Below, one piece after another: positions 716 through 43,347 of a DNA stretch of 43,347 nt (its first letter is position 1; the number at the start of each line of letters is the position of its first letter). Both the position numbers and the translations under genes were made by a program. This stretch comes from a virus, in IMG/VR virus record IMGVR_UViG_3300022231_000013, positions 1 to 43,347 of that record; one strand, written 5' to 3'. The notes beneath the pieces are model-generated. The model saw only the letters and a list, made by a program, of their open reading frames with translations, had not been told where the DNA came from and ran no database searches.

Positions 716-3244
716 ATGTTTTCTATCGACGGCGGGTACAATATCCGCGAGGGCGACGATCGCATCATTTCGCAGCAGCGGGCGATCACAAAGGCAGTCA
801 ACGAAGGTTTCATTCAAGTAGGTGCCGTCTTCTTAAAACAAAGCGGCAAGATTCCCATCGACGGGGATTGGCACGGTCGAAATTTCCGCGACACCAATCT
901 GCAGGACTGGATAGACGACCCGGACTTCCGGTTCCACAACACCGGCTTCAATCTACAATTCGGCTGGACGGACGTCGACATCGATGTCGACGACCCCGAA
1001 TACAACGCCTGCCTCATTGCGGCGTTGGATCACTTAGGCGTAGATACGCGGTTCCGTTTCGGGCGCATGTCTGTGGGGTTCCCCACCCACGTATTGGTAC
1101 AGCTTGGTGAAGACGAGGCGTCTAATTTCGATGCCCTCACCAAGTTCGAACCCAAAGAATTTCGCATCAAAGGCAAACGGTTTAAGACGCAGATCAGGTC
1201 GTATTCTACGAACACCACTGCGTCCAATGTGGCTAAGACGGCCAAGCAAACGGTCATGCCGGGTTCCATCTACTCACACAAGAAGGAACACGGAGCTTAC
1301 GACATTTCGGCGTGGTACACTCAAGGCGGCGTTGTCGCCGAAAAAGTGAGCCAGATTGCGGCCACGACACCACGACGCGCGTCGTTTAACCAGATCGTCC
1401 GCGCCATCACATTCGCCACATTCCTATATGTCGTGAAAGATAGATGGGTGGAGGGGGAACGGCAGGCAATTGCAGCGAAAGTAGGAGGGTGGCTTGCACG
1501 CGTCGTAAAAGACAGCCGCGCCATGAACAACCATGAAGCTATCGCACAGGACGTATTTTGTCCCATCGACGATGATTCCATTGTTGACTCCCTTATACAC
1601 TTCGTTTGTGGATTTCAAGGAGACGAAGAACCCCATATGCGAGTGCGAGCGTACTATGACGCTGTTGCAAAGCTGGAACGAAATCCCGACGCCAAGATTC
1701 CCGGATGGCCTGCTATGGAGGCTTTGTTCGGAGGGGAGTGTGTTATTGCACTTCGGACCGTGTTCACCCCCGGAAGTGACGTTAGTGTGCTCAATGTTAT
1801 GGCAGAGAGGTACGTCTACGACGAAGCCGACAACCTGTACATCGATCGACGCAGACACTCCATGGATGGAAAGTTTGCGCACGAGTCTGGTGAACTCTAT
1901 ACACGCCACAAGGGAGACATCGTCCGTATTGCGGGCAAGCCACGCGAAGCTTTCAAGGTCTTTGAGTCCTCTGATATGCGAAAGCGTGTTGACCTTCGAT
2001 CACTTTACCCAGACTTATCGCCCGGAGGTATCTTCCGCATTAACTTCGCTGATGAAGTTCTACCAGACGACGTCGAAGACAGCGGGATGGTGATATTCAA
2101 CACGTGGCGCGGCTGGCCCATCGGCCCGACACAGGAAGTCAACGAAAAACTGATGCTGGAATGCGTCGAACGTCTGGACCGTCTACTCGGCTACATGACG
2201 CAGGACAACAAAAACCAGATTGAATGGTACAAGGATTGGGTGGCTTGGACATTCCAATTCCCCGGCAAGAAGCAACAAATCGCGCCGGTTTGCGTTGGTG
2301 GGCAGGGCGTCGGCAAATCGTTCTTCGGTAACACTGTGATGAAATCGCTGATGGGGCGGTTGTGGGGTTCCGCTTCGCCGAAAGTGATGGAGACCGGGTT
2401 TTCGGTGGAGCCATTCATCGACAAGATGTTCGTGTTCATCGACGAGGCTAAGTTCCACGGTGACGCAAGCACCGACGAAATTAAAAAGCTCATTCGAAAC
2501 ATCGACGTTGGTGGTGCCGAGAAGTTCCAATCCGCGCGGAATTTCCGGATATTCTCCCGGCTTATGTTCGCGAGTAACCGATACGACATGGGCGTCGGAC
2601 AATCTGGGGTGGTGGATCGAGCGTTGTTCTATACCAAAGCCTACGACCACGAGTTCCTCGGCATCACCGAAATAAAATTCCGTGAGTGGACCGAAACCCT
2701 GAAACCGTGGTTTGCGGAATACGCAGCGTTCCTTGAGCGCCGCGACGTGCGTGAACACTACATAAAGTACTTTATGGACCGCCCTGTGAACCAGCAGACG
2801 GTGGAAAGTATCAGGTACTCCAGCGCCAACGATGCGTCCATCGTCGCGGCCAACATGTCGTGGCCGCGCAAGATCGCAAAGAGGATCATCGAAGAAGGCA
2901 AGATCATGGATGGCGTGGCTCTGGAGGTTCCGTTCACCGAGCGCGACTTGAACGAGCGCGTCAACGAACTTGTCAAGGAAATGGGCATGCGGACGGTGCA
3001 GGGATCGCGCGTTCTGGCGGAGTTCCAGCAGGCTGGCATCCTTGGCGAAATCCGCAGCGGTTTTAAGCGCGCGTATCGGTTCACCCACAAGATCGGGGAC
3101 ACCACTCGTCTTTTCGGCGAAGCGATCAACGTCGAACTTTCGTCGCAGTTTGAGTTCACCGAAAACGACTACGGACCAAACGAAGCCGAAATAGGCGCGC
3201 GGCTGTCTTGGAAGGGGATCAATCCAGCCAAGGCGCAGTTCTAG
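716..3244 (+). CDS. DNA primase/polymerase-helicase fusion (prim-pol N-domain plus SF3/D5-type P-loop helicase), 842 aa
   Basis: N-terminal acidic motif GFNLQFGWTDVDIDVDD typical of bifunctional prim-pol domains. Walker A VGGQGVGKS and Walker B MFVFIDEA lie in the C-terminal half. The protein ends in ...AKAQF. Confidence 0.85.
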   Translation: MFSIDGGYNIREGDDRIISQQRAITKAVNEGFIQVGAVFLKQSGKIPIDGDWHGRNFRDTNLQDWIDDPDFRFHNTGFNLQFGWTDVDIDVDDPEYNACLIAALDHLGVDTRFRFGRMSVGFPTHVLVQLGEDEASNFDALTKFEPKEFRIKGKRFKTQIRSYSTNTTASNVAKTAKQTVMPGSIYSHKKEHGAYDISAWYTQGGVVAEKVSQIAATTPRRASFNQIVRAITFATFLYVVKDRWVEGERQAIAAKVGGWLARVVKDSRAMNNHEAIAQDVFCPIDDDSIVDSLIHFVCGFQGDEEPHMRVRAYYDAVAKLERNPDAKIPGWPAMEALFGGECVIALRTVFTPGSDVSVLNVMAERYVYDEADNLYIDRRRHSMDGKFAHESGELYTRHKGDIVRIAGKPREAFKVFESSDMRKRVDLRSLYPDLSPGGIFRINFADEVLPDDVEDSGMVIFNTWRGWPIGPTQEVNEKLMLECVERLDRLLGYMTQDNKNQIEWYKDWVAWTFQFPGKKQQIAPVCVGGQGVGKSFFGNTVMKSLMGRLWGSASPKVMETGFSVEPFIDKMFVFIDEAKFHGDASTDEIKKLIRNIDVGGAEKFQSARNFRIFSRLMFASNRYDMGVGQSGVVDRALFYTKAYDHEFLGITEIKFREWTETLKPWFAEYAAFLERRDVREHYIKYFMDRPVNQQTVESIRYSSANDASIVAANMSWPRKIAKRIIEEGKIMDGVALEVPFTERDLNERVNELVKEMGMRTVQGSRVLAEFQQAGILGEIRSGFKRAYRFTHKIGDTTRLFGEAINVELSSQFEFTENDYGPNEAEIGARLSWKGINPAKAQF

Positions 3245-6492: not shown

Positions 6493-6666
6493 ATGGAAAA
6501 CGACGAAGAAATTCGGAAAGTGCTGCTGTATCGGGATAACGCTCGGTTCAACCTGAGACGCACTCTCAAGCGAATTGAATGGGCACAAGAGGCTAAGACG
6601 AGCTACATGCTTGAAATTCAGGCTCTGCAACGAGAACTCTATGGATTGGGATACACCGGCTCATGA
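6493..6666 (+). CDS. hypothetical coiled-coil protein (57 aa, MENDEEIRKVLLYRDNARFNLRRTLKRIEWAQEAKTSYMLEIQALQRELYGLGYTGS)
   Basis: Read by hand because it is below the track cutoff. ATG lies 3 nt after the previous stop. Its TGA overlaps the polymerase ATG (tcATGAtt, 6663-6666). Confidence 0.55.
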   Translation: MENDEEIRKVLLYRDNARFNLRRTLKRIEWAQEAKTSYMLEIQALQRELYGLGYTGS

Positions 6667-8513
6667 TTAAAACAGGCGTCATCGACCCCGAGTTGGCCCT
6701 CCGTATCGTCCGTGAAGACCCCGTAATGGCTTACGACACGGAAACAACCGGCCTCACCGCCCGCGATCTGATCTGCGGGTACGTCTTCACTAATTGGGAG
6801 TTTTCGGTATATGTGCCAGTTCGACACGAAATGGGAGGAAATATCCCGAACCCGAGCGATTTCGAGGCTGCGTTGGCAGAGGCGTTCATGGAACGCCATC
6901 GTCTGGGCTACCGTACTGTTGGTCACCATCTTGGGTTCGACCTTCGTGCTTCCCTCCGACACGGTATTCGCATTCTCGGCCCCTGCGAAGACACACAAAT
7001 CAACGAAAGCCTCATCAACGATCGAACTGTCGGCTATTCCCTCGACGAGTGCGCTCAAAGACGCGGTGTCACGGCGAAAAAGGGCGATGCAATGTACCGT
7101 GCGATCGCCGCTCGGTTCGGGGGTCTTCCCGACAAGAAGTCGATGGCCAACTTCTGGCGCATGCCGGGGGACCAATTTGAAACCGTAGACTACGCTACGG
7201 GCGACGGTGTTTCGACGCTGGAACTGTGGCAGGTCCAGCAAAAAATCCTCGACGAGGAAGAACTACGTGTTCCGTGGCAACTGGAGTGCGATCTGCTGCC
7301 ATACGTCGCCCGCATCCACAACCGTGGAATCAAGATCGACAAAAATTACGCCGAAAAAGCGAAGTCCGACATCAAGGGCAGCATCGACGAAGCCAAGTCG
7401 AAATTTCCGCCCGGCTTCAACGTTCGATCGACCAGCGAGGTTTACGAACTATACAGGCAGAACGGATACACCGATGATCAATTCGCCCGCACTGAACCGA
7501 CTGCGAAGCACCCACAAGGCCAAGTTAGCTTCCGAGAAAAGTGGCTCGAAAAGAACGCTATCGGTAAAGCTATCCTTTCGGTGCGACAACTCGAAAAAGC
7601 AGAGTCGTCTTTTATTGCCCCGCTCGTCGAAACCCAAAACATCAACGGACGGGTTCATCCCGTTCTGCACCAGTCCAAGGGCGACGACTACGGCGTTGCT
7701 GGCGCTCGTTTTTCGTGCTCTGATCCGAACATGCAAGCGTATCCGAAACGCAACAAGGTTATCGGCAAGGTAGTTAGGCCGCACGTCATACCCGATGATG
7801 GTATGGTAATTGAAGAAGCAGATGCGATGCAGCAGGAGCCGCGCTTCTTCACCCACTATTCCCAAGACAAGGCGCTTCTTGAAGGCTATCGATCGGGCAC
7901 GATGGACATTCACGACCGGGCGTCTGAGGTTCTCGGCCTAGACCGAGACTACGCCAAGCGTCTAGGTCTCGGGATGCTTACGATGATGTCACCGCCTACT
8001 CTGGCGATGCATATGGATTACAGCATCGACGAAGCACGGCGCGACCACAAAGCGTTCTTGACGGAGGCTTTCCCTGACATCAAAAAGTTCCAGGACTTGG
8101 CGGTCGGGGTGTATAAGAAACGGGGCTTCGTCAAGTCTATTCTCGGGCGCAAAGCTCGCTGCGAAGACCCACGGTTCGCCTACCAAGCCGTGTCGCGCAT
8201 CATTCAAAACGGCGGCGGCGACCACCTCAAGGTTTGCTTGCTTCGGGCTTGCCAGTTCGAGGACGCGCATCCCGACGTCATTCAGTTGCTTCTAACCATC
8301 CACGATTCGCTCATCTGGCAGCGAGACCCCGGTGCCTTGAAGCAGCTCAAGGAGCTGATCGCCATCATCGAAAACGTGCCGCACGAGCCGCAATTCAACC
8401 TTTCGGTGCCGATCCCATTCGAGCTAGGTTCCGGCCTTCATTGGGCCGAAGCATCATATGGCGCGAAGCTCAAAGACAAGAAAGGGTGGGTCGGTGAACT
8501 CGCGAATATTTAA
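6663..8513 (+). CDS. family-A DNA polymerase with 3'-5' exonuclease (616 aa); candidate DpoZ-type enzyme
   Basis: Exo I AYDTETTGL. Motif A EADAMQQEPR. Motif B RDYAKRLGLGMLTMMS. Motif C LLLTIHDSLIW. C-terminal VPIPFELGSGLHWAEA matches Klenow VPLLVEVGSGENWDQA. Confidence 0.9.
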   Translation: MIKTGVIDPELALRIVREDPVMAYDTETTGLTARDLICGYVFTNWEFSVYVPVRHEMGGNIPNPSDFEAALAEAFMERHRLGYRTVGHHLGFDLRASLRHGIRILGPCEDTQINESLINDRTVGYSLDECAQRRGVTAKKGDAMYRAIAARFGGLPDKKSMANFWRMPGDQFETVDYATGDGVSTLELWQVQQKILDEEELRVPWQLECDLLPYVARIHNRGIKIDKNYAEKAKSDIKGSIDEAKSKFPPGFNVRSTSEVYELYRQNGYTDDQFARTEPTAKHPQGQVSFREKWLEKNAIGKAILSVRQLEKAESSFIAPLVETQNINGRVHPVLHQSKGDDYGVAGARFSCSDPNMQAYPKRNKVIGKVVRPHVIPDDGMVIEEADAMQQEPRFFTHYSQDKALLEGYRSGTMDIHDRASEVLGLDRDYAKRLGLGMLTMMSPPTLAMHMDYSIDEARRDHKAFLTEAFPDIKKFQDLAVGVYKKRGFVKSILGRKARCEDPRFAYQAVSRIIQNGGGDHLKVCLLRACQFEDAHPDVIQLLLTIHDSLIWQRDPGALKQLKELIAIIENVPHEPQFNLSVPIPFELGSGLHWAEASYGAKLKDKKGWVGELANI

Positions 8514-9168: not shown

Positions 9169-9580
9169 ATGGGTATCCGGAAATCTGAGGCCGAGTACAA
9201 AGGTGAGATGCGCGACGAAATCAACAGCGAGGGCGGGTTCGCTACGAGCATTGAGGACCAATATCGCGTGGGGATTCCCCGATCTTATACTTTGTATGCC
9301 GCAGACGGGAATCATTATCGCCGAGGCTAAGGTTTTCGATGGTAACATATTCCGGCCCCGATCGCGTCAATACATCGAAATGTGCCGTATCGAGGACGGC
9401 GGTGGGAAGACTGTTCTGATAGGGGTTAAGAACGATAAGCACTACTTGCACAGCCTGCTAAGGGATGATATACTTAGGGGTACGGTGCACAAGGACGACT
9501 GCATCGTACAGGATGACGATGAGTCATTCGTAGGAGTTTTCTTAAGATGGTTCAAGGAGACCAAAAATGAACGACAGTGA
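9169..9580 (+). CDS. PD-(D/E)XK nuclease (VRR-NUC / endonuclease-I-like) with an apparent +1 frameshift at CCCC 9277-9280; join(9169..9279,9281..9580), 136 aa
   Basis: Frame A reads MGIRKSEAEYKGEMRDEINSEGGFATSIEDQYRVGIP. Frame B continues DLILCMPQTGIIIAEAKV. Joined, they restore the nuclease motif GxPD...(E)xK. Neither frame alone contains the full motif. Confidence 0.6.
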
Positions 9581-10028
9581 CCACCGAAAAACCGCCAGCC
9601 ACGTGTTGCACACGGCCCATAAGGTCGTGACCACCGAAAGGGGGAACCAGCATGGCGGCGCGGAAGATAGCTTCCAGATGATCGGCGACCTGTGGGGCAC
9701 GTATCTGAGCAACACGAAGGACAACCAGGGTGCACAGCAGCGCATCCGGGTCACCGCCTACGACGTTGCGCAGATGATGGTCCTGCTCAAGATCGCCCGC
9801 GCAACACACGGCGACCCGCTCAACGATGATCATTACATCGACGCGGCGGGGTATACCGGCCTTGCGGCGGCGATCGCCGGGGTGAAGACGCCGGAGCAGA
9901 AGGCTGAGGCCGAAACCACCAAAGCTCTCGCCAAGGCGTTTTCGCCCGCCACCGAGCGTGCCGAAGCCAACGAGGGCCGCATCCCGGTTCAGAAGCCGGT
10001 ACTTCCCCGCAATCCGGAGCAGGTATAA
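9567..10028 (+). CDS. conserved phage protein (153 aa), DUF6378-like pattern
   Basis: Pattern ERGNQHGGAEDSF..IGDLWGTYL...YDVAQMMVLLKIARATHG...DDHYIDAAGYTGLAA. Its stop overlaps the purZ start (TAATG). Confidence 0.7.
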   Translation: MNDSDHRKTASHVLHTAHKVVTTERGNQHGGAEDSFQMIGDLWGTYLSNTKDNQGAQQRIRVTAYDVAQMMVLLKIARATHGDPLNDDHYIDAAGYTGLAAAIAGVKTPEQKAEAETTKALAKAFSPATERAEANEGRIPVQKPVLPRNPEQV

Positions 10029-11095
10029 TGGGACATTTCGACATGCGCCTTTTCGGTGACTACGGCATCCACGCTATCGCAGATGGCCAATTCGGTTCCA
10101 CCGGCAAGGGCGTCCTTGCTGCGTGGTTGGCTGCTCGTGCTGTCGAGCAGGACATTGACTTCCGGGCTTGCGTAAGCAACGCTGGCCCGAACTCCGGTCA
10201 CACGTTCTATCACAACGGCGAAAAACACGTGCTCAAGCAGCTGCCCACTTTCGCCGTGGCCGCGCATCTGCTCGGCATGGACATGCCCGTATTCCTTACA
10301 GCGGGGGCGGTGATCGACCCGGAAATTCTGTGGGCAGAGTGCGCCCGCTATCCGGGTGTGCAGGTGTTCGTCAACAACATGGCGTCGGTGATCACGCCGG
10401 AGGACAAACATTCCGAGGCTGACCCGGCTGGCAGCATAGCTGCAGTAGCCGGGACCCGCAGCGGCACCGGAATGGCCCAAGCGAACAAGATCATGCGCCA
10501 CCCGCGCGCTGTTTTCCGAAACATCGACCCGGCCCGCTTCCCCGCCAATCTGACGGCTTACACCAAGTGGGACCCGCTGATGACGGTGGACTGCGTCTAT
10601 TCGGGATGCACGTTCATGGAAATCAGCCAGGGTTTCTCGCTCGGCATCAATTCGGAGTTTTATCCGAAAGTAACGAGCCGGGAATGCACGGTGATGCAGG
10701 GCCTCGCTGATGCGCGGCTTCCGGCACGCGCTCTCACCCGGTCCTACCTTTCGATGCGGACTTATCCGATCCGGGTCGGCAACGTCGACGGTCATTCGTC
10801 TGGAGATTGCTACGACGATCAGGAAGAGATTTCGTGGGACAGCATCGGTCAGAAGCCGGAACTTACCACGGTGACGCAGCGGGAGCGTCGTCTCTTCACG
10901 TTCTCCCGCAAACAGGCTGAGGAAGCTATCGTCGCCAACGATCCTGATTTCGTCTTCCTGAACTTCATGAACTACCTCAACGAAAACGGGCAGGCATCGC
11001 TGCTTGGCCTTTTCGACGGGTTGAAGGACATCGGCGGGCGACAGTTCCAGATGATCCTCGGTAACGGCCCGACCAGCGACGACGTGGTGTTCTGA
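10028..11095 (+). CDS. purZ: PurZ, adenylosuccinate-synthetase homologue making N6-succino-2-amino-dAMP (355 aa)
   Basis: PurA motifs are conserved (AGPNSGHT, VAGTRSGTGMAQANK, MEISQGFSLG, YPKVTSRE, TTVTQRERR). The P-loop reads DGQFGSTGKG, with Ser in place of the PurA catalytic Asp. Confidence 0.8.
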   Translation: MGHFDMRLFGDYGIHAIADGQFGSTGKGVLAAWLAARAVEQDIDFRACVSNAGPNSGHTFYHNGEKHVLKQLPTFAVAAHLLGMDMPVFLTAGAVIDPEILWAECARYPGVQVFVNNMASVITPEDKHSEADPAGSIAAVAGTRSGTGMAQANKIMRHPRAVFRNIDPARFPANLTAYTKWDPLMTVDCVYSGCTFMEISQGFSLGINSEFYPKVTSRECTVMQGLADARLPARALTRSYLSMRTYPIRVGNVDGHSSGDCYDDQEEISWDSIGQKPELTTVTQRERRLFTFSRKQAEEAIVANDPDFVFLNFMNYLNENGQASLLGLFDGLKDIGGRQFQMILGNGPTSDDVVF

Positions 11096-11433
11096 TGGCA
11101 GACCGCATGGACGCGTTCAAAGAAATGGGGGCGTCGACACCGACGCCCTTCTTCAAATTCACCGTGTCGCTGGAAGGCGACATGGCCAAGTACGGCCCGG
11201 ACATTCGTCGCTTCGTCGACACGATGACGTACAAGCTGGAGAAAAATGTCCACAAGGGTAAGTGGGAAGACTTGGACATGACCACTGCTTTCCGGCGACT
11301 GATGGACGAAACTGAGGAACTGCGCCACGAAGTGGTCAATGGGAGCAACACCCTAAAGGTGATGCTTGAAGCCGCCGACGTCGCCAACTTCGCACTCATC
11401 ATTGCCGCCATGGCGATCGAGGGACGGAAATGA
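11095..11433 (+). CDS. mazZ: MazG-like nucleotide pyrophosphohydrolase (112 aa), MazZ candidate
   Basis: All-alpha MazG signature LMDETEELRHE ... MLEAADVANFALII. TGATG overlap with purZ and ATGA overlap with the next gene. Confidence 0.7.
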   Translation: MADRMDAFKEMGASTPTPFFKFTVSLEGDMAKYGPDIRRFVDTMTYKLEKNVHKGKWEDLDMTTAFRRLMDETEELRHEVVNGSNTLKVMLEAADVANFALIIAAMAIEGRK

Positions 11434-12005
11434 ACAAACACGAAAAAATTTGGAGCGAGTACGACGCTCGCCTTTCGGTGGTTCAACGTTGGGGCATCGC
11501 CCCGACCATCCAGAAGCAGAGCGTGGCGGAACACTGCTTCAACGTCGAAAGGATAGCCATCCGCATCGCCAAGGAATGGTTCGACATCGGCGGTCCGACG
11601 ACGGGCGACGGCTGGAAGTGGGAAATCGTCAAGTGGGCGCACCACCATGACGATCTTGAGGCCCTGATGGGTGATCCGCCGACTATGTCCAAGCCGTATT
11701 TCCTTGAGAAGGAAATGGCTGAGGATCATCAGGACCTTATTCCGCTTCGGGAGCCGCTCAACGCCGAAATAAAGGCGATCGTGAAACTGGCCGACCTGTT
11801 AGAAGGGTTCCGATTCCTGTGTATGGAACGCGCTCTCGGCAACTATTTTCTCGACGCCCATTGGGAAAACTACTTCACCGAAATAGAAAATCATATTCGC
11901 GCTTCCTGGCCCGATAAAGTGTCGTTTGTTTGGACCCGCGCCCACTCCTTCATGAATTATCTTTCGGCAATGAAATCCAAGCGTGAATCGCGGAGGGGGC
12001 GCTAA
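11430..12005 (+). CDS. datZ: HD-domain dNTP phosphohydrolase (191 aa), DatZ candidate
   Basis: HD-superfamily residues VAEHCFNV ... KWAHHHDDLEALMGD ... ; sits immediately after mazZ. Confidence 0.7.
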   Translation: MNKHEKIWSEYDARLSVVQRWGIAPTIQKQSVAEHCFNVERIAIRIAKEWFDIGGPTTGDGWKWEIVKWAHHHDDLEALMGDPPTMSKPYFLEKEMAEDHQDLIPLREPLNAEIKAIVKLADLLEGFRFLCMERALGNYFLDAHWENYFTEIENHIRASWPDKVSFVWTRAHSFMNYLSAMKSKRESRRGR

Positions 12006-13402
12006 TGTGGGAACCAAAAGGCGCACAGGTTGAAGCGTTGAAACGAAGCCGCGACAAACGCGGCTTCGGCTATTTTATGGAGCAGGGTCTTGGAAAGACT
12101 ACTACTACCTACGCTGATTTTCTGGACCACGGTCAACGCGGTTTTGTTGATCGCATGGTTACGCTCGCACCTAACTCTTTTAAAGGGGGCTGGGCGGATG
12201 AAGTCGACAAATTCGGGTTCCCTATTACTCCTATCGTCTTTGAATCAGGGAATACTTCTCATCTTAGTTCTTTGTTTAAGCGCGGGTTTAACACTCGTCC
12301 AAATCTTATCGTGAATTACGAGGCAATCCGCAGCGAAAGTACGCGCGACATCATTCGGGATTTTATTCGTGGGCGGGATTGTTATATCGCCGCCGACGAG
12401 AGCATCAAGCTCAAAGACCACGACAGTGCGCAGACCAAAGCTGCCCTGGAACTGTCCAAAGAATTCGCTTTCAGCCGCATCCTTTCGGGGAAGCCGATCA
12501 GCCAAGGTCCACATGACCTGTGGGCGCAGATGCGGTTCATCAAGCAACTGAACGGTAAGACGTTTTACCCGTTCAAGTCGGCGTTCTGTAAGATGGGCGG
12601 CTTCAAAATGAAGCAGGTCGTCGGAGCGCAGAACGAGGAAATCCTGGCCGAACTTATCGATCCGCACGTATTCCGCGCCACCAAGGCCGAGTGGACCGAC
12701 CTACCACCCAAGGTGTACACCACCCGCGAATATTCCATGACGCCGGAGCAGCGCAATCTGTACCGGCAGATGGAAGAAGAATTCGTTATTTGGCTCGGAG
12801 ACGGCGAACACGTCGCGGTCGATCAGGCTATTACGAAGTACATTAAACTAGCCCAAATCCAGGCTGGTTTCATCATCGACGGGGAAGGGAACACACGTAT
12901 CCTCGTCGACCCGGCGAAAAACCCACGCCTGAACGTTTTAGAAGACATCATCCGCGACGAAATCGTCGGCAAGGTTTCGGTGGTTTACAACCACAAGGTT
13001 GTTCGACCGATGCTCTACGAGCGGTTCGCGAAGTACAACCCGACCCATATTAGTGGGGGAATGACGCCGCAGGAAATTGAGGACAATAAGAGGAAGTTCA
13101 ACAATGACCCGACGTGTCGTATTATATTCCTCACAAAAGCGGCTAAGTATGGGCATACTCTATTGGGAGGACCAGAACCTCAAAACCATTGTTCGACGCA
13201 GATATTTTATGAGAACACGTATTCCCTTGACGACCGAAGCCAGATCGAAGATCGAAGTCATCGTTACGGCCAGCTTGGCGAATCAATGTCTTATTACGAT
13301 ATAGTCGGAACCCCGCTCGACAAAGCGGCGACGAAAGCACTGCAGCGAAAAGAAGGCGTGTTCCAATCCGTCTTCAAAAACATAGGGAAGCACAGACTAT
13401 GA
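12005..13402 (+). CDS. SNF2-family helicase/ATPase (465 aa)
   Basis: Motif I EQGLGKTTTT, motif II AADESIKLKD, motif VI QIEDRSHRYGQ. TAATG overlap with datZ. Visibly more A/T-rich than its neighbours. Confidence 0.85.
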   Translation: MWEPKGAQVEALKRSRDKRGFGYFMEQGLGKTTTTYADFLDHGQRGFVDRMVTLAPNSFKGGWADEVDKFGFPITPIVFESGNTSHLSSLFKRGFNTRPNLIVNYEAIRSESTRDIIRDFIRGRDCYIAADESIKLKDHDSAQTKAALELSKEFAFSRILSGKPISQGPHDLWAQMRFIKQLNGKTFYPFKSAFCKMGGFKMKQVVGAQNEEILAELIDPHVFRATKAEWTDLPPKVYTTREYSMTPEQRNLYRQMEEEFVIWLGDGEHVAVDQAITKYIKLAQIQAGFIIDGEGNTRILVDPAKNPRLNVLEDIIRDEIVGKVSVVYNHKVVRPMLYERFAKYNPTHISGGMTPQEIEDNKRKFNNDPTCRIIFLTKAAKYGHTLLGGPEPQNHCSTQIFYENTYSLDDRSQIEDRSHRYGQLGESMSYYDIVGTPLDKAATKALQRKEGVFQSVFKNIGKHRL

Positions 13403-42287: not shown

Positions 42288-43304
42288 ATGCCGATCACCA
42301 TCCACCACACCACCAAAAAGAGCGCCGAAAAACAGGGCGTCCTGCTCGAAGTTGACGGCTCGACTGTCCGCGCGTTCATTCCGAAGAACGGCACGGCTGT
42401 TTTCGGCGTATCGGGGCAGGATGCACTCAAGCAGGTGCTCGCAGCGCAGGAATTGTTCACCAAGTCCAGCGAAAACGTGCGTTACCGCCACGGCGACGAT
42501 CCGAAAATTCGTGGCAAGTTGGAAAAGAACGGTAAGACAGGGAATGCCGAGCCGTCGATCACGGAAGGCACACCGGTCGAGCTGCTCGCCCTCTGGGAAG
42601 CCGGGACGATCGAATGGGATGACGCTCCGGTTACGATTGACTGGGACGAAAAGCTGATCGTCGACAACATCGAGGACACGCTGCCGGACGGCGGACCCAA
42701 CTCTGGTTTCGTTGAGGACGAACACCCCAAGGAACCGGCTGTAGACAGCCGCCCCGTCATCAGGCGCGCTGAGAACGGCGTGGCTCTGGACGGCGCTGTC
42801 GCCTATCGCGAGGGCATCACGGCGGCGGACTGCCCGTATTCCTCTGAGACCGACGACGAGGAAGAATACGCCAACTTCGAGCGCTGGAACGAAGAATGGG
42901 ACGCCGCCGCAGACGCCGCCGAGGAAGAAGAGTCGGAAGGCAAAGGCGGCTCGGTGGTCAAGTCCAAGTACCGCGAAAAGTACAAAGAACTCGGCCACCC
43001 GACCCATTGCGGCGACTGGCTGGCGGAACTGCTCAACAACTACTGCATCGGCGACAAGAACACCGATCTGGAGACGTTCGAGCGCATCTGCAGCCTGAAC
43101 GGCGTCGACACCAGCAAGTACCGCCGCGAGGGCGTCGGTTGGCAGGGGCGCATTCGGATGACGGGCCGCAATCTGCTCGCTAAGCGCGTGTTTTCGGCGG
43201 GTAAGATCACCGTGCCGAACACGGATGGCGGGGAACCCATCACGCTCGACGCTCCTGCCGACTGGATGGCTGCGCAACGTTACAACAAGCCCGAGACGAA
43301 GTGA
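42288..43304 (+). CDS. paralog-family protein 3 (338 aa) with Rmf-like CPY motif and an acidic linker
   Basis: AYREGITAADCPYSSE...FERWNEEWDAA (Rmf-like). C-terminal GSVVKSKYREKYKE...DWLAELL...FERICSLNGVD...GWQGRIRMTGRNLLAKRV. Confidence 0.75.
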   Translation: MPITIHHTTKKSAEKQGVLLEVDGSTVRAFIPKNGTAVFGVSGQDALKQVLAAQELFTKSSENVRYRHGDDPKIRGKLEKNGKTGNAEPSITEGTPVELLALWEAGTIEWDDAPVTIDWDEKLIVDNIEDTLPDGGPNSGFVEDEHPKEPAVDSRPVIRRAENGVALDGAVAYREGITAADCPYSSETDDEEEYANFERWNEEWDAAADAAEEEESEGKGGSVVKSKYREKYKELGHPTHCGDWLAELLNNYCIGDKNTDLETFERICSLNGVDTSKYRREGVGWQGRIRMTGRNLLAKRVFSAGKITVPNTDGGEPITLDAPADWMAAQRYNKPETK

Positions 43305-43347
43305 TGGACACCGGCCTGATCTGGTACGCAATTTACGGAGTGGCGGG
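43304..43347. repeat. terminal direct repeat, right copy
   Basis: exact 44-nt copy of nt 1-44; indicates a circular assembly overlap or a short DTR. Confidence 0.95.

Follow-up and report, generated by a model that had tools for sequence, protein, structure and literature searches.

A PurZ-linked threonine in the O-helix of a phage family A DNA polymerase encoded beside a Z cluster

The window analysed here is the whole 43,347-nt stretch of the IMG/VR virus record IMGVR_UViG_3300022231_000013, and the element in question is its open reading frame (ORF) of 616 aa at 6663..8513, which by its sequence is a family A DNA polymerase (PolA) with an intact 3'-5' exonuclease, encoded beside a Z cluster with the gene of PurZ. 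Our results indicate that threonine at the O-helix position of Klenow Tyr766 is a PurZ-linked signature of the lineage to which this polymerase belongs, and the lineage itself appears to be a third PurZ-associated one, placed in the phiJL001/phiVC8 supercluster and outside both curated DpoZ families. How Z-genome polymerases tell 2-aminoadenine (Z) from adenine is a long-standing question: according to the structure paper of phiVC8 DpoZ, no single residue of the polymerase site explains the Z/A discrimination, and the 2023 reclassification of PolA asked whether further PolA subfamilies have shifted towards Z. As a residue of the T/S class that is seen only with PurZ, and with a precedent in the Klenow mutant Y766A, Thr440 of the window PolA makes this question testable by swaps of point mutants, and in a cultured phage as well. 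If its proposed role is true, it offers a single-residue handle on how DpoZ-type enzymes separate Z from A, and the Thr/Ser switch would add a third way of replicating with selection for Z, distinct in its mechanism. Residue numbers below are those of the window PolA or of Klenow, as named, and all features described lie on the plus strand.

Active-site residues and their co-variation with purZ

The ORF matches the Pfam families DNA_pol_A (3.5e-39) and, weakly, DNA_pol_A_exo1 (1.3e-3), and its assignment is further supported by alignments and by a structural model. In the exonuclease domain, the Exo I motif AYDTETTGL at 6729..6755 provides D25 and E27, and the alignment shows that all the DEDD(Y) proofreading residues (D25, E27, D93, Y177 and D181) are intact, just as a previous sequence-only reading of this DNA had claimed for the domain. 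In the polymerase domain, motif A at 7821..7838 has a canonical catalytic Asp387 (Klenow D705) and a canonical steric-gate Glu392 (E710); motif B, the O-helix RDYAKRLGLGMLTMMS, is located at 7944..7991, where R428 corresponds to R754, K432 to K758, R433 to A759, L436 to F762 (position "B3") and T440 to Y766 (position "B4"), with the Thr440 codon at 7980..7982; motif C reads IHDS at 8298..8309, so that H547, D548 and S549 correspond to Klenow H881, D882 and E883. All seven polymerase positions D705, E710, R754, K758, Q849, H881 and D882 are conserved.

This mapping was obtained from HMMER alignments against Klenow and against 7PBK, the structure of phiVC8 DpoZ, from a 138-sequence MAFFT alignment, from an 89-sequence MAFFT L-INS-i alignment, and from an AlphaFold model, and the same result came from all four independent alignments or models. 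The sequence-only reading had aligned the O-helix to Klenow by hand and proposed Phe to Leu, Tyr to Thr and a motif C of IHDS; the four alignments agree with it, and the placement of Leu436, Thr440 and Ser549 holds also in the alignment and AlphaFold check against phiVC8 DpoZ and Klenow. The model, built with 43 homologues, has a mean predicted local distance difference test (pLDDT) of 90.8 and a predicted template-modelling score (pTM) of 0.90; its O-helix is unbroken at residues 428-439, and T440 sits at the C-terminal end. Moreover, the substitutions are neither a one-off nor an error, because L/M at B3, T/S at B4 and HDS in motif C recur in 120/120 of the closest database relatives, which are 62-79% identical to the window PolA.

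To see how these residues behave in relation to purZ, relatives were gathered by a 50%-cluster representative search, by look-ups of the encoding contigs, and by three scans of IMG/VR; since the diverse alignment made at the outset (A1, 50 sequences) spanned too much divergence for scanning the collection, three narrower ones took its place. B3, B4 and motif C were read by adding each PolA to the reference alignment, and flanks of up to 10 kb were searched for PurZ, the HD gene, the MazG-like ORF and SNF2. The count takes in loci with a PurZ match and those whose sequence covers either the interval between PolA and SNF2 or no less than 5 kb downstream; the contexts of P0133 and P0185 are too short for a PurZ call. 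The sample thus consists of 141 unique PolA relatives with readable context. Among the unique PolAs, Thr at B4 occurs in 79 with PurZ and in 0 without it, and Ser in 2 and 0; Tyr occurs in 7 and 39, Asn in 3 and 3, Gly in 0 and 1, and Phe in 5 and 1, respectively. In other words, T/S at B4 stands exclusively with PurZ (81/81), while the PolAs with Tyr are purZ-less in 39/46 cases. We considered whether the PurZ matches at the Tyr-B4 loci are in fact PurA-like genes, and rejected it: Ser14 and Thr262 are found in every PurZ match, including those beside Tyr-B4 polymerases.

The other two substitutions behave differently. Syntenic relatives without purZ carry them as well, for example L021 (= P0129) with L/Y/HDS and L017 with L/N/HDS at B3, B4 and motif C, and because of these relatives Leu762 and Ser883 are to be regarded as clade background, not as Z-linked residues or Z markers. 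Hence co-variation with purZ, which the sequence-only reading had named as a check, holds for Tyr766 to Thr only and fails for F762 to Leu and E883 to Ser, and the alternative of clade-specific drift, raised in the same reading, is right for the latter two.

An unbiased scan of all alignment columns in the supercluster gave a consistent picture, where B4 has the largest PurZ-exclusive signal (43/53 PurZ+; a residue is called PurZ-exclusive when it is never seen in PurZ- sequences). The column following K758 has Arg in 51/53 PurZ+ against 2/13 PurZ- sequences, a count which does not take phylogeny into account; in the window this is Arg433, with its codon at 7959-7961. The residue following B4 (M441 in the window) is also PurZ-associated, and no column is more informative on PurZ status, by mutual information, than that of Q477 (Klenow M802; codon at 8091-8093), with Q/L/H in PurZ+ and T/N/R/S in PurZ- sequences.

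Since related sequences are counted together, the association was also viewed on a bootstrapped neighbour-joining (NJ) tree, made with corrected p-distances from the 89-sequence alignment. A naive Fisher test of T/S at B4 against PurZ gives 7.8e-24, which is too strong a figure, as three clades contain most of the T/S sequences. More telling is a clade with 98% support in which L021 and L017/L103 are the sole purZ-less members and all others have T/S and PurZ: L021 lies in an 88% subclade and has Tyr at B4, and L017/L103 are sister to the clade of the window with 100% support and have Asn. Both lineages keep the backbone of primase-polymerase, gp33-like, gp34-like, PolA and SNF2 genes with the cassette missing from its slot. 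By a crude branch-length-weighted (concentrated-changes) estimate, two losses of T/S would fall on those two branches by chance with P ~1e-3. Furthermore, all members of another clade, with Gln762/Thr766 and 100% support, are PurZ+, and three divergent Thr representatives chosen blind to their context were PurZ+ in 3/3 cases. Taken from these sequence comparisons, the association between Thr and PurZ appears to exceed what shared ancestry gives.

Several relatives have unusual residues at other active-site positions. In P0032, P0044, P0050, P0121 and L051, which are 63-67% identical, the position of R754 is Tyr (…DYDKAKRMAMGILSMM…), with a Lys two residues on and Ser at B4; this O-helix Arg has been described as non-mutable in Taq. 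Motif C reads YDS in L172, P0149, P0164 and P0193 and YDN in P0178, i.e. Klenow H881 is replaced by Tyr, and the His of this HD dyad has been called "universally conserved"; among the YDS relatives, PurZ has been confirmed for L172/L026 and P0193.

Relation to the published DpoZ clades

Two DpoZ clades have been published, a phiVC8-like one (PolA cluster #18) and a Wayne-like one (cluster #19) (PMC8599892, PMC10201439). The phiVC8-like clade is marked by three insertions, by the residues L455, F459, G548 and S583, and by extended exonuclease helices E1 and E2 (PMC8599892, PMC10201439); of these residues, L455, G548 and S583 are also present in phages without a Z cluster (PMC8599892), while Phe at B4 is the sole substitution common to both clades (PMC8599892, PMC10201439). 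In our sample, L139 has Phe/Phe at B3/B4 and no PurZ within 10 kb on either side, on a 61-kb contig where PurZ could lie elsewhere, and the Phe at B4 may therefore occur also outside PurZ phages.

The window PolA had been put forward as a DpoZ candidate, and in one respect this proposal is well founded: phiVC8 DpoZ (7PBK) is its best solved relative both by sequence (E 1.1e-38) and by fold, with a template-modelling (TM) score of 0.80, the fold match to Klenow being 0.79. The two enzymes share the Klenow-like architecture of exonuclease and polymerase domains and a gene position beside purZ and an HD gene, and moreover Leu at B3, Ser in motif C, insertion 1, and E1/E2 helices with Lys and Met. 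In fact, purZ and an HD protein, a candidate dATP remover, lie in the same genome here, which is the context regarded as that of a functional DpoZ.

Membership in the published clades, on the other hand, is not borne out. The identity to phiVC8-like DpoZ is only 26-30%. Against the curated model phage_DpoZ_1 (NF038380, cut-off 500 bits) the window PolA scores 261 bits, where the positive controls phiVC8 and SH-Ab 15497 reach 909 and 939 bits; the sub-threshold match was considered as evidence of membership and rejected, since purZ-less relatives and phiJL001 (sequence AY576273) score in the same range or higher (P0129 275, P0122 251, P0189 252 and phiJL001 297 bits). The model DpoZ_2 (NF038381) gives no match to the window PolA at E<=1e-3, against 1145 bits for the Wayne control. 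Hence the curated NCBIfam cut-offs would not name this lineage DpoZ.

The structural marks point in the same direction. Insertion 2 (phiVC8 A442-P448) is missing, the R754-K758 segment having 4 residues as in Klenow against 11; insertion 3 (P473-K491) is missing too, the fingers tip having 30 residues where phiVC8-like enzymes have 47-49 and Klenow has 29. Insertion 1 (phiVC8 G349-G353) is present as a five-residue palm loop at 7674..7697 (residues 338-345, with low pLDDT), where 12 residues stand against 7 in Klenow; as a DpoZ marker it was rejected, for the loop has the same length in nearly all phage relatives, purZ-less ones included, and so is not Z-specific. At B4, phiVC8 has F459 in place of Thr440, and at its G548 position (motif 6) the window PolA has Ser511. 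Leu436 and Ser549 match L455 and S583 of phiVC8, and both residues are also found in purZ-less relatives. The helices E1 (residues 142-152) and E2 (158-166), encoded at 7086..7160 and helical in the model, carry K158 and M161 at the positions of phiVC8 R161 and M165 by the alignment, which agrees with the R/K161 and M/I/A165 pattern of phiVC8-like enzymes, and this too is shared by non-Z relatives. Finally, in the NJ tree a phiVC8-like clade with 100% bootstrap excludes the window PolA, which falls into a separate supercluster of 84% that holds both PurZ+ and PurZ- lineages.

As for the Wayne-like DpoZ, the likeness consists in a PolA that travels with a PurZ-type gene, a B4 residue other than Tyr, and a motif C that reads HDS; however, the identity is ~22%, Wayne itself has Phe/Phe at B3/B4, it has PurZ0 and a dUTPase-like enzyme instead of PurZ, DatZ and MazZ, and its PolA is related to D29-like PolAs. 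Nearer to the window are the phiJL001-like PolAs (cluster #11) and purZ-less relatives such as P0129/L021 and P0122/L017, which share the supercluster, Leu at B3 and similar DpoZ_1 scores; the nearest purZ-less ones also share the backbone (primase-polymerase, Pam3 gp33-like, gp34-like, PolA, SNF2) and HDS. They differ in having Tyr, or else Asn or Gly, at B4 and in lacking the cassette in the slot between PolA and SNF2.

A possible role of Thr440 and its alternatives

The O-helix Tyr of family A polymerases (Klenow Y766) normally lies stacked against the template's base and aids the closing of the fingers on the nascent pair; it swings away as the fingers close, and together with E710 it shapes the pocket of the nascent pair. 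What its loss means is known from single-molecule work on Klenow Y766A, which with A-dTTP and T-dATP shows weak binding and poor closing of the fingers, while on G-dCTP its binding, closing and incorporation are as in the wild type; Y766F is about like the wild type (PMC3715850). By analogy, a small polar residue at 766 would handicap the enzyme on A:T but not on pairs with three hydrogen bonds, Z:T included. The analogy has its bounds: in the mutators Y766A and Y766S the aromatic ring is lost at the same O-helix position as in the window, but these are laboratory mutants of lowered fidelity, whereas the Thr of the window is a conserved natural residue set in another context, with Leu762 and Arg759 and a genome predicted to be without A:T pairs.

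The explanation we favour is that the window PolA, as a member of the third lineage, would be the replicative polymerase of a Z-genome podophage in which Thr440 replaces the pair-closing Tyr and biases synthesis toward Z:T. Pairs with three hydrogen bonds (G:C and Z:T) would be handled normally by such an enzyme, whereas A:T pairs with two would close poorly and be disfavoured. A further contribution to this bias could come from the proofreading domain, which is intact and has E1/E2 helices like those of phiVC8, through backtracking on weak pairs. An idea based on base-pair stability fits the finding of T/S only with PurZ and the replacement of Thr in the lineages lacking the cassette, and it fits as well what Czernecki et al. 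concluded, namely that it is probably the stability of the base pair, and not the 2-amino group, which DpoZ senses (PMC8599892). The Arg following K758 may belong to the same picture. Its position is that of the low-fidelity mutants Taq T664R and Klenow A759R and of POLN K679, where a basic residue has been proposed to stabilise the closed state (PMC2879524), and one may speculate that Arg433 offsets the closing defect of Thr440. The explanation as a whole is in our judgement about evenly balanced between right and wrong, and both the preference for dZTP and the causal part of Thr440 in it are drawn from the Klenow analogy. A bolder form, in which Tyr766 to Thr/Ser would be a natural and largely sufficient switch to a hydrogen-bond-counting polymerase that rejects A:T and accepts Z:T and G:C, seems to us rather unlikely.

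Several points weigh against giving Thr440 such a role. In seven unique PurZ+ relatives (L124, L180, L191, L118, L187, L190 and L122), whose PurZ is genuine (FSTFY) and which have HD genes, B4 is still the canonical Tyr, and some of them keep HDE as well, so that Thr is not needed for a PurZ lifestyle. Conversely, the purZ-less L017, L103 and L104 (Asn at B4) and L215 (Gly) have a backbone of the window type and the motifs AKTLGLSIFNGM and SKRMNMGILGCMG; with no PurZ in the visible 10 kb, they indicate that PurZ phages are not alone in having a non-aromatic B4, as far as the absence of purZ can be judged by up to 10 kb of flank and by the syntenic slot. The change from Tyr to Thr is accordingly neither necessary nor a general rule for PurZ phages. 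Besides, several deep nodes of the NJ tree are weak (bootstraps 26-34), and the independent co-transitions are few, 2 to 4. Published mutagenesis also places part of the behaviour of phiVC8 DpoZ in the exonuclease and backtracking and not in the O-helix, and cyanophage S-2L attains full Z substitution with a non-selective polymerase and DatZ (PMC10201439).

The last case leads to the alternative that survives best. The window PolA might be a non-selective replicase with no preference for Z, where adenine is excluded by control of the nucleotide pool through the DatZ-like HD enzyme, the MazG-like protein and PurZ, as in S-2L, and where Thr440 reflects a relaxed constraint, tolerated as every pair of a Z genome has three hydrogen bonds. 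This would account equally well for the one-directional association in which T/S is seen only with PurZ; it agrees with the Tyr of the seven PurZ+ relatives, some of which keep the full L/Y/HDE set of purZ-less phages, with the HD gene found in all PurZ+ loci having enough sequence, and with the report that DpoZ is dispensable for complete A-to-Z substitution (PMC10201439). A relaxed constraint, however, predicts a mixture of residues, yet Thr makes up 79/81 of the T/S cases over three deep clades and is kept down to ~32% overall identity, which argues against simple relaxation or pure drift. Nearby O-helix positions (R433, M441) also differ systematically between PurZ+ and PurZ- sequences, and the purZ-less Asn and Gly variants show that Tyr can be lost even in presumably A-containing genomes. 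We consider this alternative doubtful.

One may also suppose a backtracking DpoZ, of phiVC8-type function, whose preference for Z comes from the partitioning between exonuclease and polymerase via E1/E2, with Thr440 being incidental drift of the clade. In its favour are 7PBK as the best match in sequence and fold, the intact DEDD site, and the helical E1 and E2 with K158 and M161, the more so as phiVC8 R161 is reported to vary to Lys (PMC8599892). Nevertheless M161 is conserved to at least 90% in the mixed alignment A1, and the E1/E2 architecture with its Met is common to purZ-less relatives, the helices being described as shared with phiJL001-like PolAs (PMC10201439); because of these relatives E1/E2 cannot alone mark Z specificity. 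The exonuclease-dead mutant of phiVC8 retains the Z/A ratio (PMC8599892), and drift fails to explain why Thr is missing from purZ-less lineages nested among the Thr clades, so this proposal is quite improbable. As for a sampling artefact, in which one or two ancient events without functional meaning were inherited by many sampled contigs, the bulk of the 81 cases in three clades, the weak deep nodes and a search that returns relatives ranked by similarity, and hence samples unevenly, leave it some room, but with two nested purZ-less lineages (bootstraps 88-100) that lost Thr, the concentrated-changes estimate for them, and the context-blind representatives all PurZ+, it deserves hardly any credence.

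The genome, its Z cluster and the relatives of the phage

The favoured explanation for Thr440 supposes a Z genome, for which the genes around the polymerase provide the ground. The replication module is ordered as primase-polymerase, Pam3 gp33-like, gp34-like, PolA, small ORFs, DUF6378, PurZ, a 112-aa ORF, HD and SNF2, with the Z cluster lying 1.5 kb downstream of the polymerase. The first gene, by family search a primase-polymerase or D5-type primase (DUF5906), is located at 716..3244 and belongs to the conserved replication backbone. The DUF6378 gene (9567..10028, family search) abuts the start codon of purZ, and close relatives conserve it upstream of PurZ; the label "phosphofructokinase" that it has in PHROG looks unreliable. 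PurZ itself, a succino-amino-deoxyadenylate synthase homologous to adenylosuccinate synthetase, is encoded at 10028..11095, as assigned by family search and by signature residues: it has FSTFY at F12/S14/T262/F295/Y298 (phiVC8 numbering) like phiVC8 PurZ, where E. coli PurA has WDGKV, and the roles of these five residues separating PurZ from PurA have been described (bioRxiv 10.1101/2025.10.22.683976). With 217 bits against the PurZ model NF038379 it falls below the curated cut-off of 300 bits, and this is still its best-matching family. In the Met762/Thr766 clade, 15 PurZ homologues have His for Phe at phiVC8 F295 (FSTHY, YSTHY), a residue stacking on the adenine of ATP (bioRxiv 10.1101/2025.10.22.683976).

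The 112-aa ORF (11095..11433) is a MazG-like MazZ candidate; Pfam and NCBIfam searches with it gave no family match, and its candidacy comes from the orthologue in an Ochrobactrum phage, annotated as an NTP pyrophosphohydrolase, together with its conserved position. Next to it, at 11430..12005, an HD-domain YfbR-like phosphohydrolase (PHROG 7076, 3.7e-16) is a candidate DatZ, i.e. a dATP triphosphohydrolase, and an SNF2-family helicase (12005..13402, family search) anchors the cassette slot on its downstream side. In purZ-less syntenic relatives this slot is empty, the whole cassette of PurZ, MazG-like and HD genes being gone. The placement of the polymerase beside a Z cluster, already noted by the sequence-only reading, is thereby confirmed: PurZ with the phiVC8 signature, followed by the MazG-like ORF and the DatZ-like HD gene. 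Most likely the phage makes dZTP via a PurZ of its own and depletes dATP via the DatZ-like HD enzyme, and judging from these genes its DNA is probably ZTGC.

The window also encodes an SU10-type capsid and portal and a terminase, and has no tRNA genes. Its two ends carry an exact direct repeat of 44 bp (1-44 and 43304-43347), which suggests a complete genome that is either terminally redundant or assembled with a circular overlap; probably the window is a complete podophage genome of ~43.3 kb. A megablast search of 25 kb of the window against a phage collection gave no match, so that the lineage is known only at the protein level. At this level it is a large, mostly uncultured and environmentally common lineage of podophages of ~43 kb. 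Its only isolate is Ochrobactrum phage vB_OspP_OH (L001, MT028492), whose DNA polymerase I (QIG66084) is 59% identical to the window PolA and thus the nearest cultured relative, with Met/Ser/HDS at B3/B4/motif C; gene order and Z cluster are as in the window. The description of this phage in 2020 mentions an ordinary Pol I and "nucleotide salvage" genes and considers no modified genome (PMC7139368). In a literature search no paper was found that links the phage to PurZ or DpoZ, and its Z cluster appears to be unrecognised in the papers searched.

Two further observations concern the host and the relatives. The site GANTC (CcrM/HinfI) occurs 55 times in the window against ~164 expected from base composition, while GATC is not depleted (210 observed, 164 expected); the depletion of GANTC would fit an alphaproteobacterial host or an avoidance of the site. 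Finally, there are PolA homologues of 860-990 aa, namely P0123, P0131, P0134, P0141, P0142, P0166, P0168, P0170, P0174, P0180, P0188 and P0192, which align to the window PolA in two or three parts set apart from each other, the break lying near its residues 350-390, and this suggests inteins or other insertions in the palm/fingers region.

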